Shown piece by piece: positions 5,559-38,308 of a stretch of DNA of 43,508 bases. The translations under genes and the position numbers were made by a program. Every line of letters begins with the position of its first letter. Position 1 is the first letter of the stretch. This DNA is from Spirochaetota bacterium (GTDB taxonomy: Bacteria; Spirochaetota; UBA4802; UBA5550), in NCBI GenBank assembly GCA_038241375.1, contig JBBRFT010000003.1:1-43508 (forward strand). Direction: 5' to 3'. Under the pieces are notes generated by a model. It searched no databases, had not been told where the DNA came from, and saw nothing but the letters and a program-made list of their open reading frames with translations.

Positions 5559-6896
5559 TTAATTCTTTTTGTATCCTATCTCTTTTATAAACCGGGGCAG
5601 TTCCTCCGGTCCATTTTTATAATATAAAAGATGAAGTTCTTTTTTTGCCCTTGTTAATGCCACATAAAAAAGTCGTCGCTCCTCTTCAATATCCGAAGTT
5701 TTATCGGGAATAATTTTATCCGATATCCCTGCAATTATAACAGCATCAAATTCCAGACCCTTCGATCCATGCATTGTCATAAACGTTATTTCTCTCCCGG
5801 AGTTATCGGATTCCATTTTACTTTTAAGATATGAACCCTGGTAGTTATTACGGTAGAGTACAGCTATGGAAAATTTTTCAGGAACTCTGCTGATAATTCG
5901 AAGAAGGACTTGAGCTTCGTTTTCCATATCTTCAATATTATACAATTTAACTTTTCCTCCTTTTCCATGATAAGATGTTATTTTTTTTGAAGTCCGGAAT
6001 TTATTAAGATTAATGAAGCGGTTTGATATTGTAATGATCTCTTTATGGGATCTGTAGTTGACCGTAAGTTTGTGAATTATAATACCGGGGAAAAATTTTT
6101 TTGCGTTGATAATATATTCAACACGGCTGTGGCGGAATTTGTAAATACTCTGGAAGTCATCGCCAACCATGAATAAGTTTCGGTTATTTTCTGGAAGAAG
6201 AAGTGAAAGCAGACGGAAATTGTTTTCGGATGTATCCTGAAATTCATCGACAAATATATACCTGTACATTGATGTTATCTTAGTCCTCACATGAGGATAT
6301 GTTTCGAGAAGTTCAGTGCTGTGATTTATCATATCTTCGAACTCAAGGAGCAGTTTCTCTTTTTTATAGTTCTCAAATTTACTTATGATATCAATTATTT
6401 CAGTGAATAGGGGACCCGATTTAAGTTTCTGAAGTATATTTTTATCAAGATGATCAATATTTTCTGCCAGTTTAATCACAGTATTTGCCGGAAGCCCCAG
6501 GAATCTTTCAGGCTTCTCCATTATCAGTTCTTTCATGATACTTTCTTTTTCGTCTTTTCCTATAACAGTAGGGAAGGATTCTATTTTCCGGTGTTTTAGA
6601 TATTCTTCTTTCTGATCCTTAAGAAGTTTAAGTGAGAATGAGTGAAAAGTTCCGGCGAAGCCCGGTTCACAATCGGTGTTAAGCTTTCCGGATAATCTCT
6701 CTTTAATTTCAAGTGCAGCTTTTTTGCTGAATGTAAGTATAAGGATTTGATCGGACCTGACAATTCGATGCTCAAGAATATTATGAATTTTTGTAATCAT
6801 TGTGCTTGTTTTGCCGGTTCCGGCACCGGCAATTACCAGGTTAATTCCGCCATCAGGTTTTGATGCGGCGAGTTGTTGTTGATTAATTATGCTCAT
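5559..6896 (-). CDS. UvrD/Rep/PcrA-family SF1A helicase, compact (lacks 2B subdomain)
   Basis: AGAGTGKT, LTFS, TFHS, DEFQD, VGDDFQSIYKFR, NYRS, MTMHGSKGLEF and EEERRLFYVALTRAK motifs are all present in 445 aa. Confidence 0.9.
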   Translation of the reverse strand: MSIINQQQLAASKPDGGINLVIAGAGTGKTSTMITKIHNILEHRIVRSDQILILTFSKKAALEIKERLSGKLNTDCEPGFAGTFHSFSLKLLKDQKEEYLKHRKIESFPTVIGKDEKESIMKELIMEKPERFLGLPANTVIKLAENIDHLDKNILQKLKSGPLFTEIIDIISKFENYKKEKLLLEFEDMINHSTELLETYPHVRTKITSMYRYIFVDEFQDTSENNFRLLSLLLPENNRNLFMVGDDFQSIYKFRHSRVEYIINAKKFFPGIIIHKLTVNYRSHKEIITISNRFINLNKFRTSKKITSYHGKGGKVKLYNIEDMENEAQVLLRIISRVPEKFSIAVLYRNNYQGSYLKSKMESDNSGREITFMTMHGSKGLEFDAVIIAGISDKIIPDKTSDIEEERRLFYVALTRAKKELHLLYYKNGPEELPRFIKEIGYKKN

Positions 6897-14795: not shown

Positions 14796-16580
14796 ATGGG
14801 AACGATTATGGATATGTCAAATAATAGCGTATTTTCAGTAGTGCAGTGTGTCAGAAAAGGGCCGAATTTAATTTTTCGAACCATGTTTGGTGAAGATAAT
14901 GCATCTTTATCTGATTTTAAAACAGAGGATATATTTGAAGGGGATATATTTTTTATAAACAAACAGTGCATTGCCCAATCCGGTTATATAATATATAAAA
15001 AGGAATCAATTCTCAATAAATATTTTCTTGAGTTTGAGAAGACCGTCATAACCCCTTATTTTTCAAAAGATGTATTAAGAGAAGTTGAAGAAATTACAGC
15101 AAAACCTGGCATTGATGATCCGCTTCTTACTAATTATAGCGCTCTCCCTTTTATTACAATTGATAATGACGATTCAAAAGATCTCGATCAGGCTTTGTAT
15201 GTAGAAAAAAATATCACAGGTTATATTATATATTATGCTATTGCCGATGCGTCATATTATGTTAAACCTGGTTCCGCTTTGTTTAAAGAGAGCCTCCGGC
15301 GTGGAGCAAGTTATTATCTCCCCGGCTTTTCTGTTCCCATGCTTCCGCGTGAGTTGTCCGAGGGGATTATATCTCTTAACCCGGATGTTCCTAGAAGAGC
15401 TCTGGTTTTTAAAATTCAGATTAATGGTGAGGGGGATATAATTTCCAGTGAAGTCACCAGAGGGAGAATTCTAAGTAGAGCAAAACTTACCTATTCAGGA
15501 GTGCAGGATTTTTATAATTCCATGACAGGTAGCTCTTTAAACAATCTAGAATATACATCATCTCTTGTTGCTCTTCAGGATGCCGGTAGAATTCTTGTTC
15601 GTAATGGAGAGATGAGAGGAGTAATAAATTTTGACCGTTTTGAAAATCTGATAAGTATAAGTGAAGATGGAAATAGTTTGATATTCACGGAAAAAGAAAG
15701 GGATGATACTGGAAGATGGAACGAACAGTTATCTCTCCTTTGCAATATGGCCGGAGCTTCCATGCTTGCACCGGATGGTAAAGGGAACGATCTTCATATA
15801 CATCCTGTTTTCAGAGTTCATGAAGCTCCCGATGAATCGAGTCTCCATAGACTGGAGAAGGTTATCACTTCGATAGTGAAGATCCATTCACTAAACGAAT
15901 GCTGGATATGGAGGCGAGGGGAGGAGACTCCTGGTGAATATCTTTCACGTCTCCCTCGTACCGGGAATGAAAAGAGAATAACAGAAACGATCGAAAGGCA
16001 GATTTTAATTACAAATCAGAGATCTGTCTTTTCAGAAAATCCAGGTGAGCATTTTGCACTGAAGGTTGATTTGTACGGCAGATTTTCCTCCCCAATGAGA
16101 GAGGCCGTTGGAATTTACTCTCACAAAGAATTGCTTGAAAAACTTGGGATTGAAAAACCGGACACTGATGAAGATGAACTATTAATCAGAGAGCAGATAA
16201 TAAATTCGGCTAACAGAGCAAAAGAGACTCAAAAAACAATAGATCGTTTTGTAAATGATCTGTTGCTTCATTCAGTTTTTAATAGAGAACTCGAACTTGA
16301 GCTGGATAAAAGACCATCACATACCGGTACCATACTTGGAATGAAGGAGACAAAAATGTATGTTCTTCTCGATTCCCCCAGACTTGAAATTAAAGTTTAT
16401 AGTGAGGATATAGAACAGGCCGCAGGAGGAAAGCTTGAAATGAATGATAATATTTTTGAATTGGAGAGCGGTTCTTCCTGTAAAATGATCTTTAAAGCGG
16501 GCGAAATTATTGAATTAAAGCTTTTCTCTTTTGACAGTAAAGGGAAGTGGCATTTTGTTCCCGCAAGTATAAAATTTTAA
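14796..16580 (+). CDS. RNB-domain (RNase II/R family) exoribonuclease
   Basis: FITIDNDDSKDLDQA, AIADAS, RGASYYLPG..VPMLPRELS, FRVHEAP and HFAL...GRFSSPMRE motifs; S1-like C-terminus. Start uncertain. Confidence 0.85.
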   Translation: MGTIMDMSNNSVFSVVQCVRKGPNLIFRTMFGEDNASLSDFKTEDIFEGDIFFINKQCIAQSGYIIYKKESILNKYFLEFEKTVITPYFSKDVLREVEEITAKPGIDDPLLTNYSALPFITIDNDDSKDLDQALYVEKNITGYIIYYAIADASYYVKPGSALFKESLRRGASYYLPGFSVPMLPRELSEGIISLNPDVPRRALVFKIQINGEGDIISSEVTRGRILSRAKLTYSGVQDFYNSMTGSSLNNLEYTSSLVALQDAGRILVRNGEMRGVINFDRFENLISISEDGNSLIFTEKERDDTGRWNEQLSLLCNMAGASMLAPDGKGNDLHIHPVFRVHEAPDESSLHRLEKVITSIVKIHSLNECWIWRRGEETPGEYLSRLPRTGNEKRITETIERQILITNQRSVFSENPGEHFALKVDLYGRFSSPMREAVGIYSHKELLEKLGIEKPDTDEDELLIREQIINSANRAKETQKTIDRFVNDLLLHSVFNRELELELDKRPSHTGTILGMKETKMYVLLDSPRLEIKVYSEDIEQAAGGKLEMNDNIFELESGSSCKMIFKAGEIIELKLFSFDSKGKWHFVPASIKF

Positions 16581-16583
16581 AAA

Positions 16584-17453
16584 TTATACCTGTAATGTTA
16601 CTATTGTAGATCCCCAGTTTGATGAATCGTCATAAAAAATAATTACTGAAGGGTGACTTTTGAGAATTTCATGGATCTGTTTTTTCTTTACAGATTTCCC
16701 TTTCCCGTGAATTATCTTTACTGTTTTATATTTATTGTTTACCGCGTTTTCAAGAAACTTCCCTATCAGCATTGCCGTATCGGATGGGTGAAAGTGGTGA
16801 AGATCTATCTCTTTCCCGTTTAAAATATCAGAGATATCAATTTCATTATTCGATGAAAATAAGCTTTTTAATCTGAATTCTCTCGCTTTTTCTGACCAGG
16901 GACTTTTGCTATCTTTTTCAAGTTTTGAATATATACATCCGCAATAATTTTGTCTGTAGAAATTATTTTTTTTTGATATCTCTACTGACTTTTTTACTCC
17001 GTCATTCTTTTTAAAATCAGCAGAATAAAAAGCTATACCATATAATTTCGAGAGTCTTTCACCGATCTCGTTGATTTTTAAAACATTTTTGTGCGGAGAT
17101 ATAGACAGAGAAGTTGCTACAATATCAAAATTAAGTTCAGCAGCTTTTTTAAATGTATTATCCAGTCTTATTTCATAACACTTCCAGCAGCGGTCCGAAC
17201 TCTCTCCGAAATATCTGAAATCCTTAACATCTTTAATCCACTGTTTCGTGTCGGGAATTTCTGTAAAAAGCTGGAATCCTTTAAGCCTGCTGTATTCTTC
17301 CAGTTCGGTGTACCGTATCCTGTATTCATCCGCAGGCATAATATTAGGATTGGAGTAAAATGCTGAAATTTCAAATTCATCTTTCAGCAATTCATAAACA
17401 TATCCAATACATGGCGCGCAGCACGTATGGAGTAATAACTTTTTTGGTAGCAC
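16584..17453 (-). CDS. queH: Epoxyqueuosine reductase QueH fused to a C-terminal Smr domain
   Basis: LLHTCCAPC, NPNI, RCWKCY, ISPHKN and YRQNYCGCIYS (QueH), then EIDLH...VKIIHGKG...NWGSTIV (Smr). Confidence 0.88.
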   Translation of the reverse strand: MLPKKLLLHTCCAPCIGYVYELLKDEFEISAFYSNPNIMPADEYRIRYTELEEYSRLKGFQLFTEIPDTKQWIKDVKDFRYFGESSDRCWKCYEIRLDNTFKKAAELNFDIVATSLSISPHKNVLKINEIGERLSKLYGIAFYSADFKKNDGVKKSVEISKKNNFYRQNYCGCIYSKLEKDSKSPWSEKAREFRLKSLFSSNNEIDISDILNGKEIDLHHFHPSDTAMLIGKFLENAVNNKYKTVKIIHGKGKSVKKKQIHEILKSHPSVIIFYDDSSNWGSTIVTLQV

Positions 17454-17456
17454 TCT

Positions 17457-17804
17457 TTATTTCAGATACTTATCAAGAAAATTTGAGAGCTCTCTGGCTT
17501 TTTTTGGTTCAGCTTTGCTGTCCAGCCATAATAAAAATTTAGGTTTAACCTGATTTTTTGTTTCAGAGCAGTATTCATGATGCATTGTATATTTAGTTAT
17601 GTCGTATTTAATGTTATTAAATACTTCTTCTGCTTTGCATAAATTTTCCGGTGTTGAACCAATTATCTGACAAATCTTAATTATAATCTCATGTTTATCA
17701 ATTTCTCTGAGTTCATCATGACAGCATTTCGAGAAAAGTTCATTGCATAGTGAAATCTCATCTGTCAATTCAGGCATCATCGCCTTACCATTTTTGTTTC
17801 CCAT
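17457..17804 (-). CDS. Hypothetical Cys/His-rich protein, 115 aa
   Basis: AGGAGG RBS; ends 3 nt before the queH-smr start; 6 Cys including KCCH and HHEYC. Confidence 0.75.
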   Translation of the reverse strand: MGNKNGKAMMPELTDEISLCNELFSKCCHDELREIDKHEIIIKICQIIGSTPENLCKAEEVFNNIKYDITKYTMHHEYCSETKNQVKPKFLLWLDSKAEPKKARELSNFLDKYLK

Positions 17805-17819
17805 CGGGAATCCTCCTGA

Positions 17820-17863
17820 GTATAAAGTGTTTCAAAAATGAAATTTATTGAAACACTTTATAC
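17820..17863. promoter_or_regulatory. Perfect 16-bp inverted repeat (operator or leader hairpin)
   Basis: GTATAAAGTGTTTCAA-N12-TTGAAACACTTTATAC immediately upstream of the RBS of the 115-aa ORF. Confidence 0.5.
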
Positions 17864-17939
17864 AATCTGTAATAATAAATAACCAACAATCGATAAAATG
17901 TCAAATTTTTGTTAAAAAAAACAACACTTTTTTAATAAA

Positions 17940-20096
17940 TCATGTGATTTTAATAACCAAAAGAGTAATGTCAGAGCCTTGAAGTGAAATTCCCATAAAA
18001 TTTTCATATGCTGATTTTAAATTTTTCGCAATATCTGCCGGGAGTTTGGATTTAGATTCTTTTACAATATTTCGCAATCGTAAAAGTCCGAAGTTTTCAT
18101 TCTCGCTGTTTTTTGAGTTTATAAAAGATTTAGAGTATATTACACATATATCTCCGCTCTTTAATTCTGTTCGCCCCTGTCCGAATTCAGCATTAAGTTT
18201 GTAACCAAGAGGCGATCCCTCGGTATCAAGTGAATCAAAATCATTTCTTTCAATTCTGAATACTTCAGCAGGGGGGAATCCGGCGTTTGAGTAAAACAAT
18301 CTCTTTGTATCTGTATCGAAAAAAGCGTAAAAAGCTGTTACCAGTTCACCTTTCCCTTTTGTATAATCATGAAGCACAAGATTGATTCTTTTTATCATTA
18401 TATAAGGTGAAGCCGCTTCGTTTATACATGCGTGGAAAACCGATCTAAGGAGAACTGAGTAAAGTGCGTTGTTGATTCCAAGACCTGATACATCAGTAAA
18501 TAGAATCCCCAGTGTATTTTTTGTAGGTTGGAGAAAATCGAAATAGTCCACACCTCTTGAGTAACCCGGGGCAATCAGTGAACCGAATTTCATATTCTTC
18601 ATCTGTGGTAATGAATTAGCTGCTGAAGCGTGAAGTATACTCCCTGATAATCCTAAACTTCTTGATATAAACTGATCCTGTTTAGCTTTATCATATGCAA
18701 GAGCTGTTATTATGAAATCATTGGATCTTATTCTGAATTCTTCAAGTTTTTGAAGTTCATCAGGGGTCAGAGATTTCATATTTTCTTTTTTACCGAGACA
18801 TAGCATCCCGTAAATTCTGTTTTCATAATAGAGTGGTAGAATTGAGCTAATATCATATTTGCTGAAAAAACCGGAAACTTCGTCCCTTATCGGTTTAAAA
18901 GACTGATCGTCCATGTAAACCCTGTTAAGAGAGAGAATCTCCTGATTTCTGGCAAACCATATAATAAGAGGAAAATGCCTGTCAATGATCATATTTTCTT
19001 CTTCTGATTCTGACGTATCAAAATTTTTTTTAAACCCTCTTGAATCTTCATCATAAATAAAAAATATAGTTCTGTTGAGTCCCAGTCCTTTATACAGTTC
19101 CAGAGAACTTGCTTCTATGAGCTCATCAAGTGTTTTTAGTTTTGATGCTTTCTGTATGTATCTGTTTGTCAGATGTTCGATATCAGCAATTTTTCTTTTA
19201 AACGCCCTATCTATTCCAGGCTGGAACAGGTAAATAAAGAGAACGAAAGCGATAACCGATGAGCCTGCAATAATCCCGGTAGGGAAGTGCGCTATATTTT
19301 TAAAATATTCTGTAAAATAAATAATTATAACAATAGGAATAAAGACCGTTGTACTAAGAACAAAATACATGGCAGTTTTATGAATAGCAGTTCTGATATC
19401 CATAATGTTATAAGCGATAACCGAATAAAAGAGTGTAATTGTAGAAACTAAAGATACACTTGAGGGGGCTATTGCATAAAACGTATAATTATTATAAACA
19501 AGAGGCATCAATATCGAGCCGATATACGTGAGAGTTATAAATATTGATGTTCCAAGAACGACATATCGGATTTGAAGCCTATATGCTTCTACCTTTGTTT
19601 TAATATAGTTGATTAAAAAAATAACCCAGCTAATGATGAAATACAGGAATGATATTGCTCCATATATTGGATAAAGAATTCCTGCTTCACGTATAGGTTT
19701 CCAGTTTTCAAATCGGACACTTTTTATAGACAGGTCGGTAAAGAAAATCAGTCCGGATAACACTAAAGCGGGGATAATTACAAGAAATGGAATATATAAT
19801 GGAACTTTTTTCTTTTTTGCAGGATAGGTGAGAGACAAATTCAAAACAGAAGCAGAGAAAAACATAGTGAAAATCTGGCTTAATTTGCTGTAAATAATCA
19901 GATCGGGTGAATCATACATGTAGTAGGTGAAAAAAATACTTCCCGGAACACCCGCTGCAATAAAATTATATATAAAAAAGAAGTTCCATGCCTGGCTTTT
20001 AATGGTTCTGTTTTTAAAGAGAACAAAAAAAGCAGTGAACAAAACAAGGATAGTGCTTATAAATGTCGCTATAAGATTCACTGTGTACATAAACAT
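17940..20096 (-). CDS. Membrane sensor: multi-TM (HisKA_7TM-like) + GAF + SpoIIE/PP2C domain, probably catalytically degenerate
   Basis: About 8-9 hydrophobic helices, GAF-like ILPLY...GMLCLGKK, and SpoIIE motifs DYFDF, DVSGLG, TAFYA, YSNAGFPP, DITLLVIK. Confidence 0.82.
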   Translation of the reverse strand: MFMYTVNLIATFISTILVLFTAFFVLFKNRTIKSQAWNFFFIYNFIAAGVPGSIFFTYYMYDSPDLIIYSKLSQIFTMFFSASVLNLSLTYPAKKKKVPLYIPFLVIIPALVLSGLIFFTDLSIKSVRFENWKPIREAGILYPIYGAISFLYFIISWVIFLINYIKTKVEAYRLQIRYVVLGTSIFITLTYIGSILMPLVYNNYTFYAIAPSSVSLVSTITLFYSVIAYNIMDIRTAIHKTAMYFVLSTTVFIPIVIIIYFTEYFKNIAHFPTGIIAGSSVIAFVLFIYLFQPGIDRAFKRKIADIEHLTNRYIQKASKLKTLDELIEASSLELYKGLGLNRTIFFIYDEDSRGFKKNFDTSESEEENMIIDRHFPLIIWFARNQEILSLNRVYMDDQSFKPIRDEVSGFFSKYDISSILPLYYENRIYGMLCLGKKENMKSLTPDELQKLEEFRIRSNDFIITALAYDKAKQDQFISRSLGLSGSILHASAANSLPQMKNMKFGSLIAPGYSRGVDYFDFLQPTKNTLGILFTDVSGLGINNALYSVLLRSVFHACINEAASPYIMIKRINLVLHDYTKGKGELVTAFYAFFDTDTKRLFYSNAGFPPAEVFRIERNDFDSLDTEGSPLGYKLNAEFGQGRTELKSGDICVIYSKSFINSKNSENENFGLLRLRNIVKESKSKLPADIAKNLKSAYENFMGISLQGSDITLLVIKIT

Positions 20097-22242: not shown

Positions 22243-23466
22243 TTAAGAAAACAATATTTTTATAAATTTTCTCTTTCCTACTTTGAGAATACCATCTGTT
22301 TTGGACAATTCAAATTCAGTGTCGGATATTTTTTCATTTTCAAATGTAACACCTCCCCCTGAAATAAGCCTTCTTGCTTCTCCGTTAGAAGAGGCAAGAC
22401 CGGTTAACGTCATAACTTTAACTATCCAGATCTTATCATCCTTCAGCTCACTGCTATCAATTGAAAATTCAGGTATTTCGTCCGGGGCGTCTTTATTTAC
22501 AAAAATTCTGTAAAATTCCGCTTCAGCATCATCGGCTGTTTTCTCATCGTAAAATTGCGCACAAAGTTCTTTAGCTAGTCTTATCTTAATATCACGCGGA
22601 TGAGCTGCGCCTGTTTCCATGTCATGTTTAAGTTTTGCTACTTCCTCCATGGGAACATCTGTTCCAAGTTCATAGTAGCGGAACATTATATCATCTGCTA
22701 TAGACATGGTTTTCCCGAATATCTCTTTCGGATGTTCATTTATTCCTATGTAGTTGTTCAGAGATTTGCTCATCTTCTGTACTCCGTCAAGACCAACCAG
22801 AAGAGGTACTGTAATAATAGCCTGAGGTTCCTGGCCATATTCTCTCTGAAGGTCACGTCCCACAAGAAGATTGAATTTCTGATCTGTTCCGCCTAATTCT
22901 ACATCTGCTTTCAGAGCTACAGAGTCGTATCCTTGTACAAGCGGATACATGAATTCAAGAATTGAGATCGGTTTCTGTGATTTATATCTGTTTGAGAAAT
23001 CATCTCTCTCAAGCATTCTGGCAACATTATATCTTGCTGTAAGCTCAAGGACATCACCAAAATTCATCGGGCTAAGCCACCTGGAGTTGAACTCTATTAC
23101 TGTTTTTTTCTCGTCGAGAATTTTAAAGACCTGTTTTTTATAGGTTTCGGCATTAGCAAGGACATCGTCGCGAGTTAATCTTTTTCTTGTTTCAGATTTT
23201 CCTGACGGATCGCCGATCATTCCTGTGAAATCGCCTATAAGAAATACCACGCGATGTCCCATATCCTGAAAATGTTTCATTTTACGAAGCAATACTGCGT
23301 GTCCAAGGTGAATATCCGGTGCTGTCGGGTCAAATCCTGCTTTTATTGTAAGAGGGGAGTTTTCCTTCTCGGACTTCTCAAGTTTCTTTTTGAATTCGTC
23401 TATCGGTATAATCTCTTCAGTTCCTCTCTGGAGGAGTTCGAAATCGTTTTTTATCATATCATTCAC
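22243..23466 (-). CDS. tyrS: Tyrosine--tRNA ligase
   Basis: [36 protein letters not shown] and a C-terminal S4 domain. Confidence 0.97.
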
Positions 23467-36415: not shown

Positions 36416-36790
36416 TTATTCTCTGTTAAGGGGATTAAATATCTGAATATTAATATCGAGTGCTCTTTTTATAATCTGAGTGTCAGATGTGATCAGTGTT
36501 GCATTTTCCTGAAGAGCCGTTGCTGCAATTATAGAATCGGGAAGTTTTAATCCGTAAGTTTTTCTGATATCAACAGTTTTGTTTATCAAATCATTATCGA
36601 TAAAAATTATACTGCAATTTTCTAATATTTTATTTATATTTTTTTCTTCTTCAGGTACTGACTTGTGAGACAAAAGTCCAATTTTTGTAATAAATGAAAT
36701 GAATATATTGTCTCCATCGATTATTGGAAGTTCTTTTGATTTACCTTTAAGCAAGTATATGATCGCATTAGTATCGAATAAATAATTCAT
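36416..36790 (-). CDS. vapC: VapC/PIN toxin (catalytic Glu apparently replaced by Gly)
   Basis: LFDTNAII, LKLPDSIIAATA and LITSD motifs; SFITKIGLL where SxITxxELL is expected. Confidence 0.88.
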   Translation of the reverse strand: MNYLFDTNAIIYLLKGKSKELPIIDGDNIFISFITKIGLLSHKSVPEEEKNINKILENCSIIFIDNDLINKTVDIRKTYGLKLPDSIIAATALQENATLITSDTQIIKRALDINIQIFNPLNRE

Positions 36791-37661: not shown

Positions 37662-37886
37662 GTGAATTTTCTCCAGTTTACAGATTTCAGAAATAACTCA
37701 AAAGAATACTTTGACAAAGTTGAGCATGGGAGCTCTTTTATTATTGTACGGAAAGGGAAACCTGTCGCAAAACTTATCCCTTTTAATGAAACCGAACCTG
37801 GCTGGAAGAGAGAGAATCAAAAAGTTGTATTGAAATCGGGAAAGACTACTTTAGATTATATTTTAGAAGAAAGAAATGATAAATGA
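37662..37886 (+). CDS. Phd/YefM-family antitoxin
   Basis: FTDFRNN..EYFDKVE.G..FIIVRKGKPVAKLIP; ATGA overlap with the toxin. Confidence 0.9.
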   Translation: MNFLQFTDFRNNSKEYFDKVEHGSSFIIVRKGKPVAKLIPFNETEPGWKRENQKVVLKSGKTTLDYILEERNDK

Positions 37887-38308
37887 ATATTTTCTGTGAC
37901 ACATCTGCTCTTATTAAAAAATATATATCAGAAACAGGTTCTGAAAAGTTTGAGAAAATACTGAGTAAGACAGATAAAATCTATGTATCTGCTATTACTG
38001 AAATAGAGACTATTTCGACTTTTAAACGGCTATTTACTGAAAAAGCAATTGATAAAAATGAATTTGATATGATAGTAAAAGACTTTGAAACTGATTATCA
38101 GTTTTTTTCAGTAGTATCAATCGATAGCTATGTAATTAAGCACGCATTAAAAATGATTAATCAGTATCAGCTGAAAACACTGGATTCAATTCAACTCGGC
38201 ACAGCGGTCTTTTTAGAAAGTGAGATAGATTTATTTGTGGCCTGTGACGAAAAATTGATAAAAACTGCATTAAAAGAGAAAATTAAAGTAATTAATCCGA
38301 ATAAATAA
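37883..38308 (+). CDS. vapC: VapC/PIN toxin
   Basis: FCDTSALIKKY, ITEIE, LKTLDSIQLGTA and FVACD; acidic tetrad intact. Confidence 0.9.
   Translation: MNIFCDTSALIKKYISETGSEKFEKILSKTDKIYVSAITEIETISTFKRLFTEKAIDKNEFDMIVKDFETDYQFFSVVSIDSYVIKHALKMINQYQLKTLDSIQLGTAVFLESEIDLFVACDEKLIKTALKEKIKVINPNK

Follow-up and report, generated by a model that had tools for sequence, protein, structure and literature searches.

A QueH-Smr fusion protein in one family of Spirochaetota, a new variant among bacterial Smr proteins

QueH is the [4Fe-4S] epoxyqueuosine reductase which makes queuosine at position 34 (Q34) of the transfer RNAs (tRNA) for Asn, Asp, His and Tyr; we know of no established physiological reductant or partner of this enzyme. 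The subject of this work is a gene in which QueH is joined in one frame to a Smr domain. The gene is carried by a stretch of 43,508 nucleotides of a Spirochaetota bacterium (GenBank assembly GCA_038241375.1, contig JBBRFT010000003.1, positions 1 to 43,508 of the forward strand), here called the window, to which the coordinates below refer.

Bacterial Smr domains are described here from parts of two papers. They describe three architectures, SmrB, MutS2 and KOW-SMR, in each of which an N-terminal module helps to recruit the Smr domain to the ribosome (bioRxiv 10.1101/2021.08.16.456513; PMC10897456). The same current work assigns bacterial Smr domains to collided ribosomes and gives the DxH motif of SmrB as the catalytic motif, needed for cleavage (bioRxiv 10.1101/2021.08.16.456513; PMC10897456). 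The N-terminal extension of SmrB carries an acidic-aromatic helix that hooks uS2, and the SMR-only form of SmrB does not bind ribosomes (bioRxiv 10.1101/2021.08.16.456513).

The fusion gene of the window is composed of the following parts.

16584..17453, minus strand: queH-smr fusion gene, 289 amino acids, GTG start, TAA stop, intact at the level of the open reading frame (ORF) in 19 related genomes
16923..17438, minus strand: QueH domain, residues 6-177, with CCAPC, RCWKC and YCGC (Pfam PF02677)
16809..16922, minus strand: QueH C-terminal tail and probable former Smr N-tail, residues 178-215 (model, alignment)
16593..16808, minus strand: Smr domain, residues 216-287, with DLH and HGKG (Pfam PF01713)

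Both domains are matched over nearly the whole of their profiles, PF02677 with E 4.6e-59 and 199.9 bits (cut-off 23.5; profile positions 1-173 of 175) and PF01713 with E 1e-13 and 51.6 bits (cut-off 25.7; profile positions 1-76 of 77). The QueH half has HTCCAPC at residues 9-15, RCWKC at 88-92 and YCGC at 170-173, with the QNYCGC motif and each of the seven QueH Cys retained; C89, C171 and C173 are invariant in the QueH alignment (A1), and C92 is kept in at least 90%. In the Smr half DLH is found at residues 217-219 (16797-16805) and HGKG at residues 249-252 (16698-16709). A first-pass annotation, made from the letters of the window, had read one continuous 289-amino-acid QueH-Smr frame with these motifs, and Pfam, the motifs and the structural model all agree with it; its range for the Smr part, 16584-16811, was right within a few bases.

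The start codon of the fusion gene is conserved as GTG or TTG (window 17451-17453). Many database entries in clusters such as P0003 and P0021 are 274 or 251 amino acids long and are missing the CCAPC motif; gene callers apparently picked internal ATGs, to which the loss of CCAPC would be due. Between residues 195 and 216 of the window copy there is no in-frame ATG, GTG or TTG, so that a separate Smr product by internal initiation is unlikely in this copy, as judged from its codons.

An AlphaFold2 model of the fusion, built on the 80 sequences of alignment A1, has a mean predicted local distance difference test (pLDDT) score of 91.8 and a predicted template modelling (pTM) score of 0.81. In this model the N-terminal half has the QueH fold and the C-terminal half the Smr fold. 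The former matches 7lc5 with Z 27.2 and a root-mean-square deviation of 1.2 Å over 175 residues (Foldseek TMt 0.93), and the latter matches 2zqe (Thermus thermophilus MutS2) with Z 13.4 and a deviation of 2.1 over 77 residues, 4och (Deinococcus radiodurans MutS2) with Z 12.7, 3qd7 (E. coli YdaL) with Z 10.9, and 8r55_z (B. subtilis MutS2 on a collided disome) with Z 10.5. The linker includes a predicted helix at residues 185-200 and is of low confidence at 202-204.

Compared with described proteins, the QueH half is matched over its full length by the QueH of T. maritima (7lc5, 7lc7, 9deu) at 31-32% identity, the Cys motifs being common to both (phmmer against 7lc5: E 2e-31, whole QueH half aligned). 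It differs in its C-terminal tail helix, which is present in all QueH of the order and is followed by Smr in five genera, and in a Cys at the place of T. maritima D13 (CCAPC against CCAPD), Cys being the majority residue in A1. For the Smr part, NCBIfam gives weak matches only, all of them below threshold, to MutS2, SmrB and SmrA. E. coli SmrB, a collision-activated endonuclease of messenger RNA (mRNA), shares with the fusion the Smr fold, the DxH motif in the form of DLH, the HGxG loop and the C-terminal position of Smr behind another module; however, the fusion reaches 35.1 bits where the cut-off of the SmrB family NF003432 is 128, and has no N-terminal hook, its N-terminal 215 residues being QueH and tail. 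The Smr part finds its best match among MutS2 proteins, in sequence (8qpp_W, E 6e-5) as in fold (2zqe), yet the MutS2 family TIGR01069 is matched with 43.1 bits against a cut-off of 400 and only at profile positions 712-786, and the fusion lacks the ATPase, clamp and KOW domains of MutS2, which in B. subtilis splits ribosomes without cleavage. At the DxH place the fusion has DLH where B. subtilis MutS2 has DLR, as given in the part of the source drawn on (PMC10897456). Against SmrA (NF033154) the score is 16.2 bits, with a cut-off of 180. The KOW-SMR of Bacteroidetes is likewise, in the part of that source drawn on, small and built of two modules, the C-terminal one being a Smr domain with DxH (PMC10897456); in the fusion Pfam finds no KOW domain, and the N-terminal module is an Fe-S tRNA enzyme.

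QueH is also joined to other partners. Out of 48 long QueH representatives scanned for a second domain family, 28 carry one of 14 other partner families, 19 are without a second family and one has Smr. The partners are VanZ (10), UDG (3), methyltransferases (3), RNase HII (2) and, one each, GNAT, 5-FTHF cyclo-ligase, CCA/poly(A) polymerase, M28, Amidase_3, NAGPA, HAD, PALP, MiaA, BirA and Smr. The QueH-Smr protein resembles these fusions in that QueH is joined to the product of another gene and is clade-restricted as such; it differs from them in its partner, found among the 48 only in the cluster of P0121, and in that none of the ten unfused loci read has this partner's gene next to queH. A literature search pairing QueH or queuosine with "Smr domain" retrieved no such paper, supplements aside, and a looser search gave chance co-occurrences only, in line with the first-pass annotation, which knew of no characterised QueH-Smr fusion. 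QueH-Smr is an undescribed architecture and a new variant among Smr proteins.

The fusion is a real, inherited and selectively maintained architecture. Of the 120 clusters ranked highest in a search of 5.8 billion proteins, 61 hold both Pfam domains, at 88-51% identity, and the remaining 59 are QueH alone. Among 1.84 billion representatives at 50% identity, one of the 150 best (P0121, 278 amino acids, QueH and Smr by Pfam) matches over both halves, and the fusion is therefore that of one narrow clade. When 121 genomes of the window's order were searched with the Smr part alone, a match was present in 105, nearly always single, and fused frames of 251-314 amino acids in 20, all belonging to five genera of one Spirochaetota family (g1 8 of 8, including the window's genome; g13 6 of 6; g10 3 of 5; g154 2 of 2; g19 1 of 1). 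Genus g10 has one further copy cut by a contig end. Nineteen extracted fused ORFs are 286-312 amino acids each, with a GTG or TTG start and the QueH N-terminus at the front; in G419 the stop-to-stop frame is only 251 amino acids. No re-split of the fusion was seen among the 20 fused genomes, and the search with the Smr part found no second copy of the order's Smr in them.

Sequencing runs were also compared with the junction. Logan contigs of run X1, which is possibly the source sample, cover 16400-16979 with 0 differences, and 16480-17530 is spanned by a contig of 2876 nt with about 90% identity from another study (X3); the only indels in it, two of 1 nt each and 2 nt apart, lie at its very 5' end and cancel each other. 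The search of runs found no RNA run and twelve DNA runs with 5-11% of words. Since both contigs span the junction with the frame intact, the lost stop in the linker which the first-pass annotation had wished to see excluded is absent.

Ratios of nonsynonymous to synonymous substitution (dN/dS) were calculated by the Nei-Gojobori method for pairs with unsaturated dS only and are rough values, dS being high throughout. They amount to 0.035-0.074 for Smr, 0.008-0.106 for QueH and 0.06-0.63 for the linker, and the mean pairwise identity of 18 fused proteins is 0.69 for QueH, 0.42 for the tail and linker and 0.65 for Smr. DLH(H), (I/V)HGKG and NWG(A/S)T are unchanged by eye in 18 fused and 11 stand-alone rows, and DLH, HGKG and NWG.T are invariant among the 18 fused. 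Rough as they are, these ratios show purifying selection on the Smr half. The first-pass annotation had named a case against itself, in which relatives have separate adjacent queH and smr genes and this copy is a one-off stop loss or assembly error, or in which the Smr domain shows neither RNA binding or cleavage nor purifying selection; the low Smr ratios and the lack of adjacency in the loci read speak against it, and relatives in five genera keep the fusion.

Outside the five genera, whether in the rest of the family or in the order's six other families, the Smr match is a short frame. In ten unfused loci read at ORF level (L047, L053-L055, L057-L059, L061-L063) it corresponds to proteins of 84-114 amino acids, made of the Smr domain and an N-tail of 10-30 residues, and in 0 of the ten is smr adjacent to queH. 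The place of queH was listed as well for eight of the ten: in G228 it lies 2.2 kb downstream of smr in the same orientation, a UvrD-like helicase gene standing between them, and in the other seven on a different contig. Families f2 and f6 include several genomes with about 14 kb between smr and queH (coordinates by eye). As stand-alone smr does not adjoin queH in these loci, a whole smr gene would have moved, or been brought by deletion, next to queH and then been joined to it. The QueH tail motif LE..S.WS at the fusion junction is shared by the order's unfused QueH, and the stretch after this tail looks like a former Smr N-tail in the alignment.

The history of the fusion was followed in a maximum likelihood tree of QueH together with ORF115, the product of the gene directly upstream of queH (see below), for 40 loci including 18 fused rows. 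The 18 fused rows and unfused G171 (genus g7) form one clade with support 100/99.6; within it a branch with support 70/70 separates the fused rows from the rest, and a single change suffices in 72% of bootstrap trees. The short Smr tree scatters the fused rows, and an approximately unbiased (AU) test did not reject their monophyly (p-AU 0.548). On these trees a single origin of the fusion is likely. Two independent fusions were considered as well, the fused copies of g154 standing beside a stand-alone copy on the Smr tree (85 in the Shimodaira-Hasegawa-like approximate likelihood ratio test); the constrained tree is no worse and the QueH and ORF115 tree needs one change, so this scheme was dropped. 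G171 gave no match to the order's Smr; its lineage either diverged before the fusion arose or later underwent a clean loss of the domain.

The stand-alone Smr is single-copy across the order, has intact DLH and HGKG and scores below all NCBIfam Smr equivalog cut-offs. As a minimal Smr without a recruiting module it falls outside SmrB, MutS2 and KOW-SMR, the three architectures described in the parts of the papers drawn on. A homologue search with the Smr part alone returned 6 proteins only, too few to give the range of the stand-alone family. The neighbours of stand-alone smr (YlbF/YmcA-like, SSB, CorA, a gene of about 385 amino acids) have no consistent theme. In genera g14, g15 and g155 (L058, L059, L061, L063) a gene of 380-393 amino acids touches or overlaps the 3' end of stand-alone smr; its C-terminus, ...RYKNFCTV, is conserved, and it matches no Pfam or NCBIfam family.

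The window's genome has two TGT genes, one QueA and a single QueH, which is the fusion; with TGT and QueA present, the pathway to the epoxyqueuosine substrate therefore exists. The second TGT paralogue (G000:C15:28948-31008; L066:1949-4009, plus strand; 686 amino acids) is fused to a methyltransferase domain of the MnmC type that uses S-adenosylmethionine (SAM), with PF01702 matched at E 1e-134 and PF05430 at E 4e-15; the canonical TGT is on contig C76. A QueG-like gene is split between the end of contig C209 (6252-6672) and the start of C217 (31-588). In the family, 45 of 63 genomes have a full-length QueG-like gene of about 376-385 amino acids, irrespective of fusion; these genes match TIGR00276 end to end with 122-163 bits, all below the equivalog cut-off of 200 bits, and represent either a diverged QueG or a paralogue acting on another substrate. 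As these genes are present, the fusion is not necessarily the sole epoxyqueuosine reductase. The other Smr match of the genome is the C-terminal end of MutS2, cut by the contig end (C285:31-312; L001), with EVR at the DxH place and HGHG kept, read by eye where BLASTP is gapped. Of the two, the fused Smr alone has DxH.

Upstream of the fusion gene, on the same strand, the following features are found.

17457..17804, minus strand: ORF115, a 115-amino-acid orphan ORF, upstream partner of queH, TAA stop 3 nt before the queH GTG
17820..17863, minus strand: perfect 16-bp hairpin of the presumed 5' leader, arms 17820-17838 and 17845-17863
17899..17904, minus strand: TTGACA box within the conserved AAAAATTTGACAT stretch, putative -35, shared by the upstream regions of the fused clade

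A homologue of ORF115 lies directly upstream of queH in 30 of 30 loci (L004-L033), at 96-32% identity. Of 79 other genomes of the order searched with the ORF115 profile, 77 have it as a single copy, against 4 of 321 genomes with a match in the rest of the phylum; ORF115 adjoins queH wherever both are listed, except in G295 (coordinates by eye), and G136 and G373 are without ORF115 and without queH. ORF115 is, by these searches, a clade-restricted orphan and a conserved companion of QueH in the order whatever the state of fusion. Because it accompanies unfused QueH as faithfully, it belongs to QueH or the operon, not to the fusion, and the distance of 3 nt between its stop and the queH GTG suggests translational coupling.

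Neither Pfam nor NCBIfam gives a match to ORF115, with sub-threshold scatter only across 45 members; its profile has a best E of 0.56 against PDB sequences, and in the ESM Atlas the best score is 0.88, to unnamed clusters, with EF-hand leads below 0.9. The family comprises 53 clusters in the 5.8 billion proteins, all unnamed. The AlphaFold2 model is poor (pLDDT 54.4, pTM 0.39) and all helical. The four matches outside the order and the copy of G295 share only about residues 49-115, in unrelated contexts; no theme was found in the contexts outside the order (flagellins, FtsJ-like methyltransferase, SAM synthetase, CCA-adding enzyme). In two of the genomes outside the order (L069 of G192, L071 of G396), proteins with the C-terminal two thirds of ORF115 are encoded just upstream of flagellin gene pairs.

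The residues invariant in the 45 members are E31, H38, G49, E59, K66, H76, L92, W93, L94, D95, P100 and F109, and H75 is present in 43. No Cys is invariant (C79 36, C45 33, C28 28, C20 20, C56 17 and C27 14 of the 45). The first-pass annotation had seen an ORF of 115 amino acids ending 3 nt upstream of queH, which is now found to be a conserved operon partner, in relatives upstream of fused and unfused queH alike. It had called this ORF Cys/His-rich, which is true of the window copy with its 6 Cys and 4 His and does not hold for the family. Its suggestion of a metal chaperone loses its Cys basis, as C20, C27 and C56 occur in less than half of the 45, and H38, H75 and H76 are kept; a His/Glu metal site of hemerythrin or HD type was considered as well and found no support.

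The perfect 16-bp inverted repeat which the same annotation had placed before ORF115 is real and forms a stable stem as RNA, with a 12-nt loop and -20.8 kcal/mol (z -5.18; 0 of 200 shuffles as stable), ending 3 nt before the AGGAGG of ORF115. Its sequence is unconserved even within the genus, with small hairpins recurring at the same place by our own reading, and the repeat is most simply a leader stem-loop. The TTGACA box would be the putative -35 of an ORF115-queH-smr promoter; a consensus promoter scan made no call there, the -10 being imperfect. The consensus scan for intrinsic terminators found none in 16400-18100, and Rfam on 16000-18500 gave a chance microRNA (miR) match only (E 0.9) and no preQ1 riboswitch over threshold.

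As to what the two halves do, we lean towards reading the fusion as two working modules in one chain, each still doing what it did before the join. The ancestor shared by the five genera would have acquired it when a single-copy minimal smr gene, of about 90-110 amino acids with the Smr domain and a short N-tail, was appended as a whole at the 3' end of queH. The N-terminal half would be an ordinary [4Fe-4S] epoxyqueuosine reductase making Q34 on tRNA-Asn, -Asp, -His and -Tyr, and the C-terminal half a DxH-type Smr endonuclease, acting most likely between collided ribosomes and cutting mRNA like SmrB, with a linker made of the tail helix of QueH and a short stretch of low conservation. The gain from fusion would be co-expression from the ORF115-queH operon and at most also an N-terminal RNA-binding body for Smr. 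We infer both activities and their independence, and the SmrB-like function of the Smr half only from purifying selection and the fact that DxH is kept.

Several observations weigh against such independence. In the three characterised Smr architectures, as far as the parts of the papers drawn on describe them, recruitment is by an N-terminal module, and a tRNA-binding QueH in exactly this position could mean more than co-expression. The fusion has been kept across five genera with none of the 20 genomes splitting it again. The pTM of 0.81, with the larger domain making up about 62% of the chain, hints at a confident placement of the domains relative to each other in the model. Finally, a QueG-like gene in 45 of the 63 family genomes could free the QueH half for another role.

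The first three of these points also favour functional coupling, which we regard as possible and rather improbable. QueH would steer the Smr nuclease, by way of the anticodon loop of the Q-family tRNAs, towards unmodified tRNA or NAY-stalled ribosomes, or else Smr would take QueH to ribosome-bound tRNA; in either case queuosine status would be linked to rescue or RNA decay. The order of QueH, linker and C-terminal Smr mirrors the SmrB hook, the KOW of MutS2 and the Bacteroidetes KOW-SMR as described in those parts of the papers; the SMR-only SmrB of the same source fails to bind ribosomes and the order's stand-alone Smr has just its 10-30 residue N-tail; and the fused Smr is the sole DxH bearer of the genome's two Smr matches, the EVR of MutS2 having been read by eye. 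Against coupling, most of the order keeps the proteins apart, on different contigs, about 14 kb away or, in G228, at 2.2 kb, and never adjacent where listed. Each also occurs without the other: in the family, QueH and ORF115 are present without a match to the order's Smr in eight genomes (G051, G063, G092, G171, G193, G203, G213, G382), and four genomes of the order have Smr and no QueH match (G136, G373, G248, G361), some of which may be explained by incomplete assemblies. QueH is joined to many other, unrelated domains, conservation is lowest in the linker (identity 0.42, dN/dS reaching 0.63), and no clade-specific change was seen in either active site. Positive evidence for coupled halves was not found in this computational analysis, and the proposal of the first-pass annotation that queuosine or Fe-S status is coupled to RNA cleavage is left unsupported, given that QueH and Smr occur apart and that QueH is prone to fusion. 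That QueH does the targeting in a bacterial Smr nuclease of a fourth kind, aimed at NAY-stalled ribosomes or under-modified tRNA, with queuosine supply setting the threshold of rescue or decay and ORF115 as third partner, we consider doubtful.

It is improbable that the Smr half is a DNA-nicking endonuclease of recombination or repair, as in the older reading of MutS2 and SmrA, and was fused by accident. A stand-alone relative is named "DNA-nicking Smr family endonuclease" in one source, though this annotation is automatic; the closest solved folds are those of the MutS2 Smr (2zqe, 4och) and E. coli YdaL (3qd7), but the current work, in the parts drawn on, puts bacterial Smr at collided ribosomes; and while smr is near SSB or UvrD-like helicase genes in some unfused relatives, the neighbourhoods of stand-alone smr vary and form no repair operon. 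Still harder to sustain is the idea that the QueH half no longer reduces epoxyqueuosine, the QueG-like enzyme doing so, and survives as an RNA-binding scaffold for Smr: the QueG-like gene, split over two contig ends here and found in 45 of 63 family genomes, would allow it, but all seven Cys and QNYCGC are kept, the dN/dS of QueH is low as in any enzyme, and the QueG-like genes, with 122-163 bits against a cut-off of 200, are present equally in unfused genera. An artefact peculiar to this contig, whether lost stop, frameshift or chimeric assembly, has a negligible chance, as nothing was found in its favour in this fragmented assembly of 413 contigs, and the same frame in 19 other genomes, the 61 clusters from several sources and the X1 and X3 contigs spanning the junction contradict it.

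The gene is flanked on its two sides as follows.

14796..16580, plus strand: RNB-domain exoribonuclease gene (Pfam), convergent, ending 3 nt from the fusion stop
17940..20096, minus strand: membrane GAF-SpoIIE (PP2C) phosphatase gene, upstream, a frequent neighbour of the ORF115-queH pair

The RNB gene adjoins in some fused genera only and in unfused G171 (L015), where it overlaps queH by 49 nt; it is taken here as a neighbour of the fusion gene only. Elsewhere in the window there are two PIN-domain genes, at 36419-36790 (minus strand) and 37883-38305 (plus strand), which are likely toxins of toxin-antitoxin pairs, a tyrosyl-tRNA synthetase (TyrRS) gene at 22246-23466 and a short UvrD-like helicase gene at 5562-6896.

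The locus adds two undescribed Smr forms of Spirochaetota, a bare DxH stand-alone protein and one with a tRNA-modifying Fe-S enzyme in the recruiting position. Even with separate halves, the fused and unfused orthologues are a natural pair for asking how a bare Smr finds its target, and the order-wide ORF115-queH pair is a new lead for an accessory factor of QueH. If the halves do act together, this would be the first direct link of a wobble-base modification enzyme to ribosome rescue.

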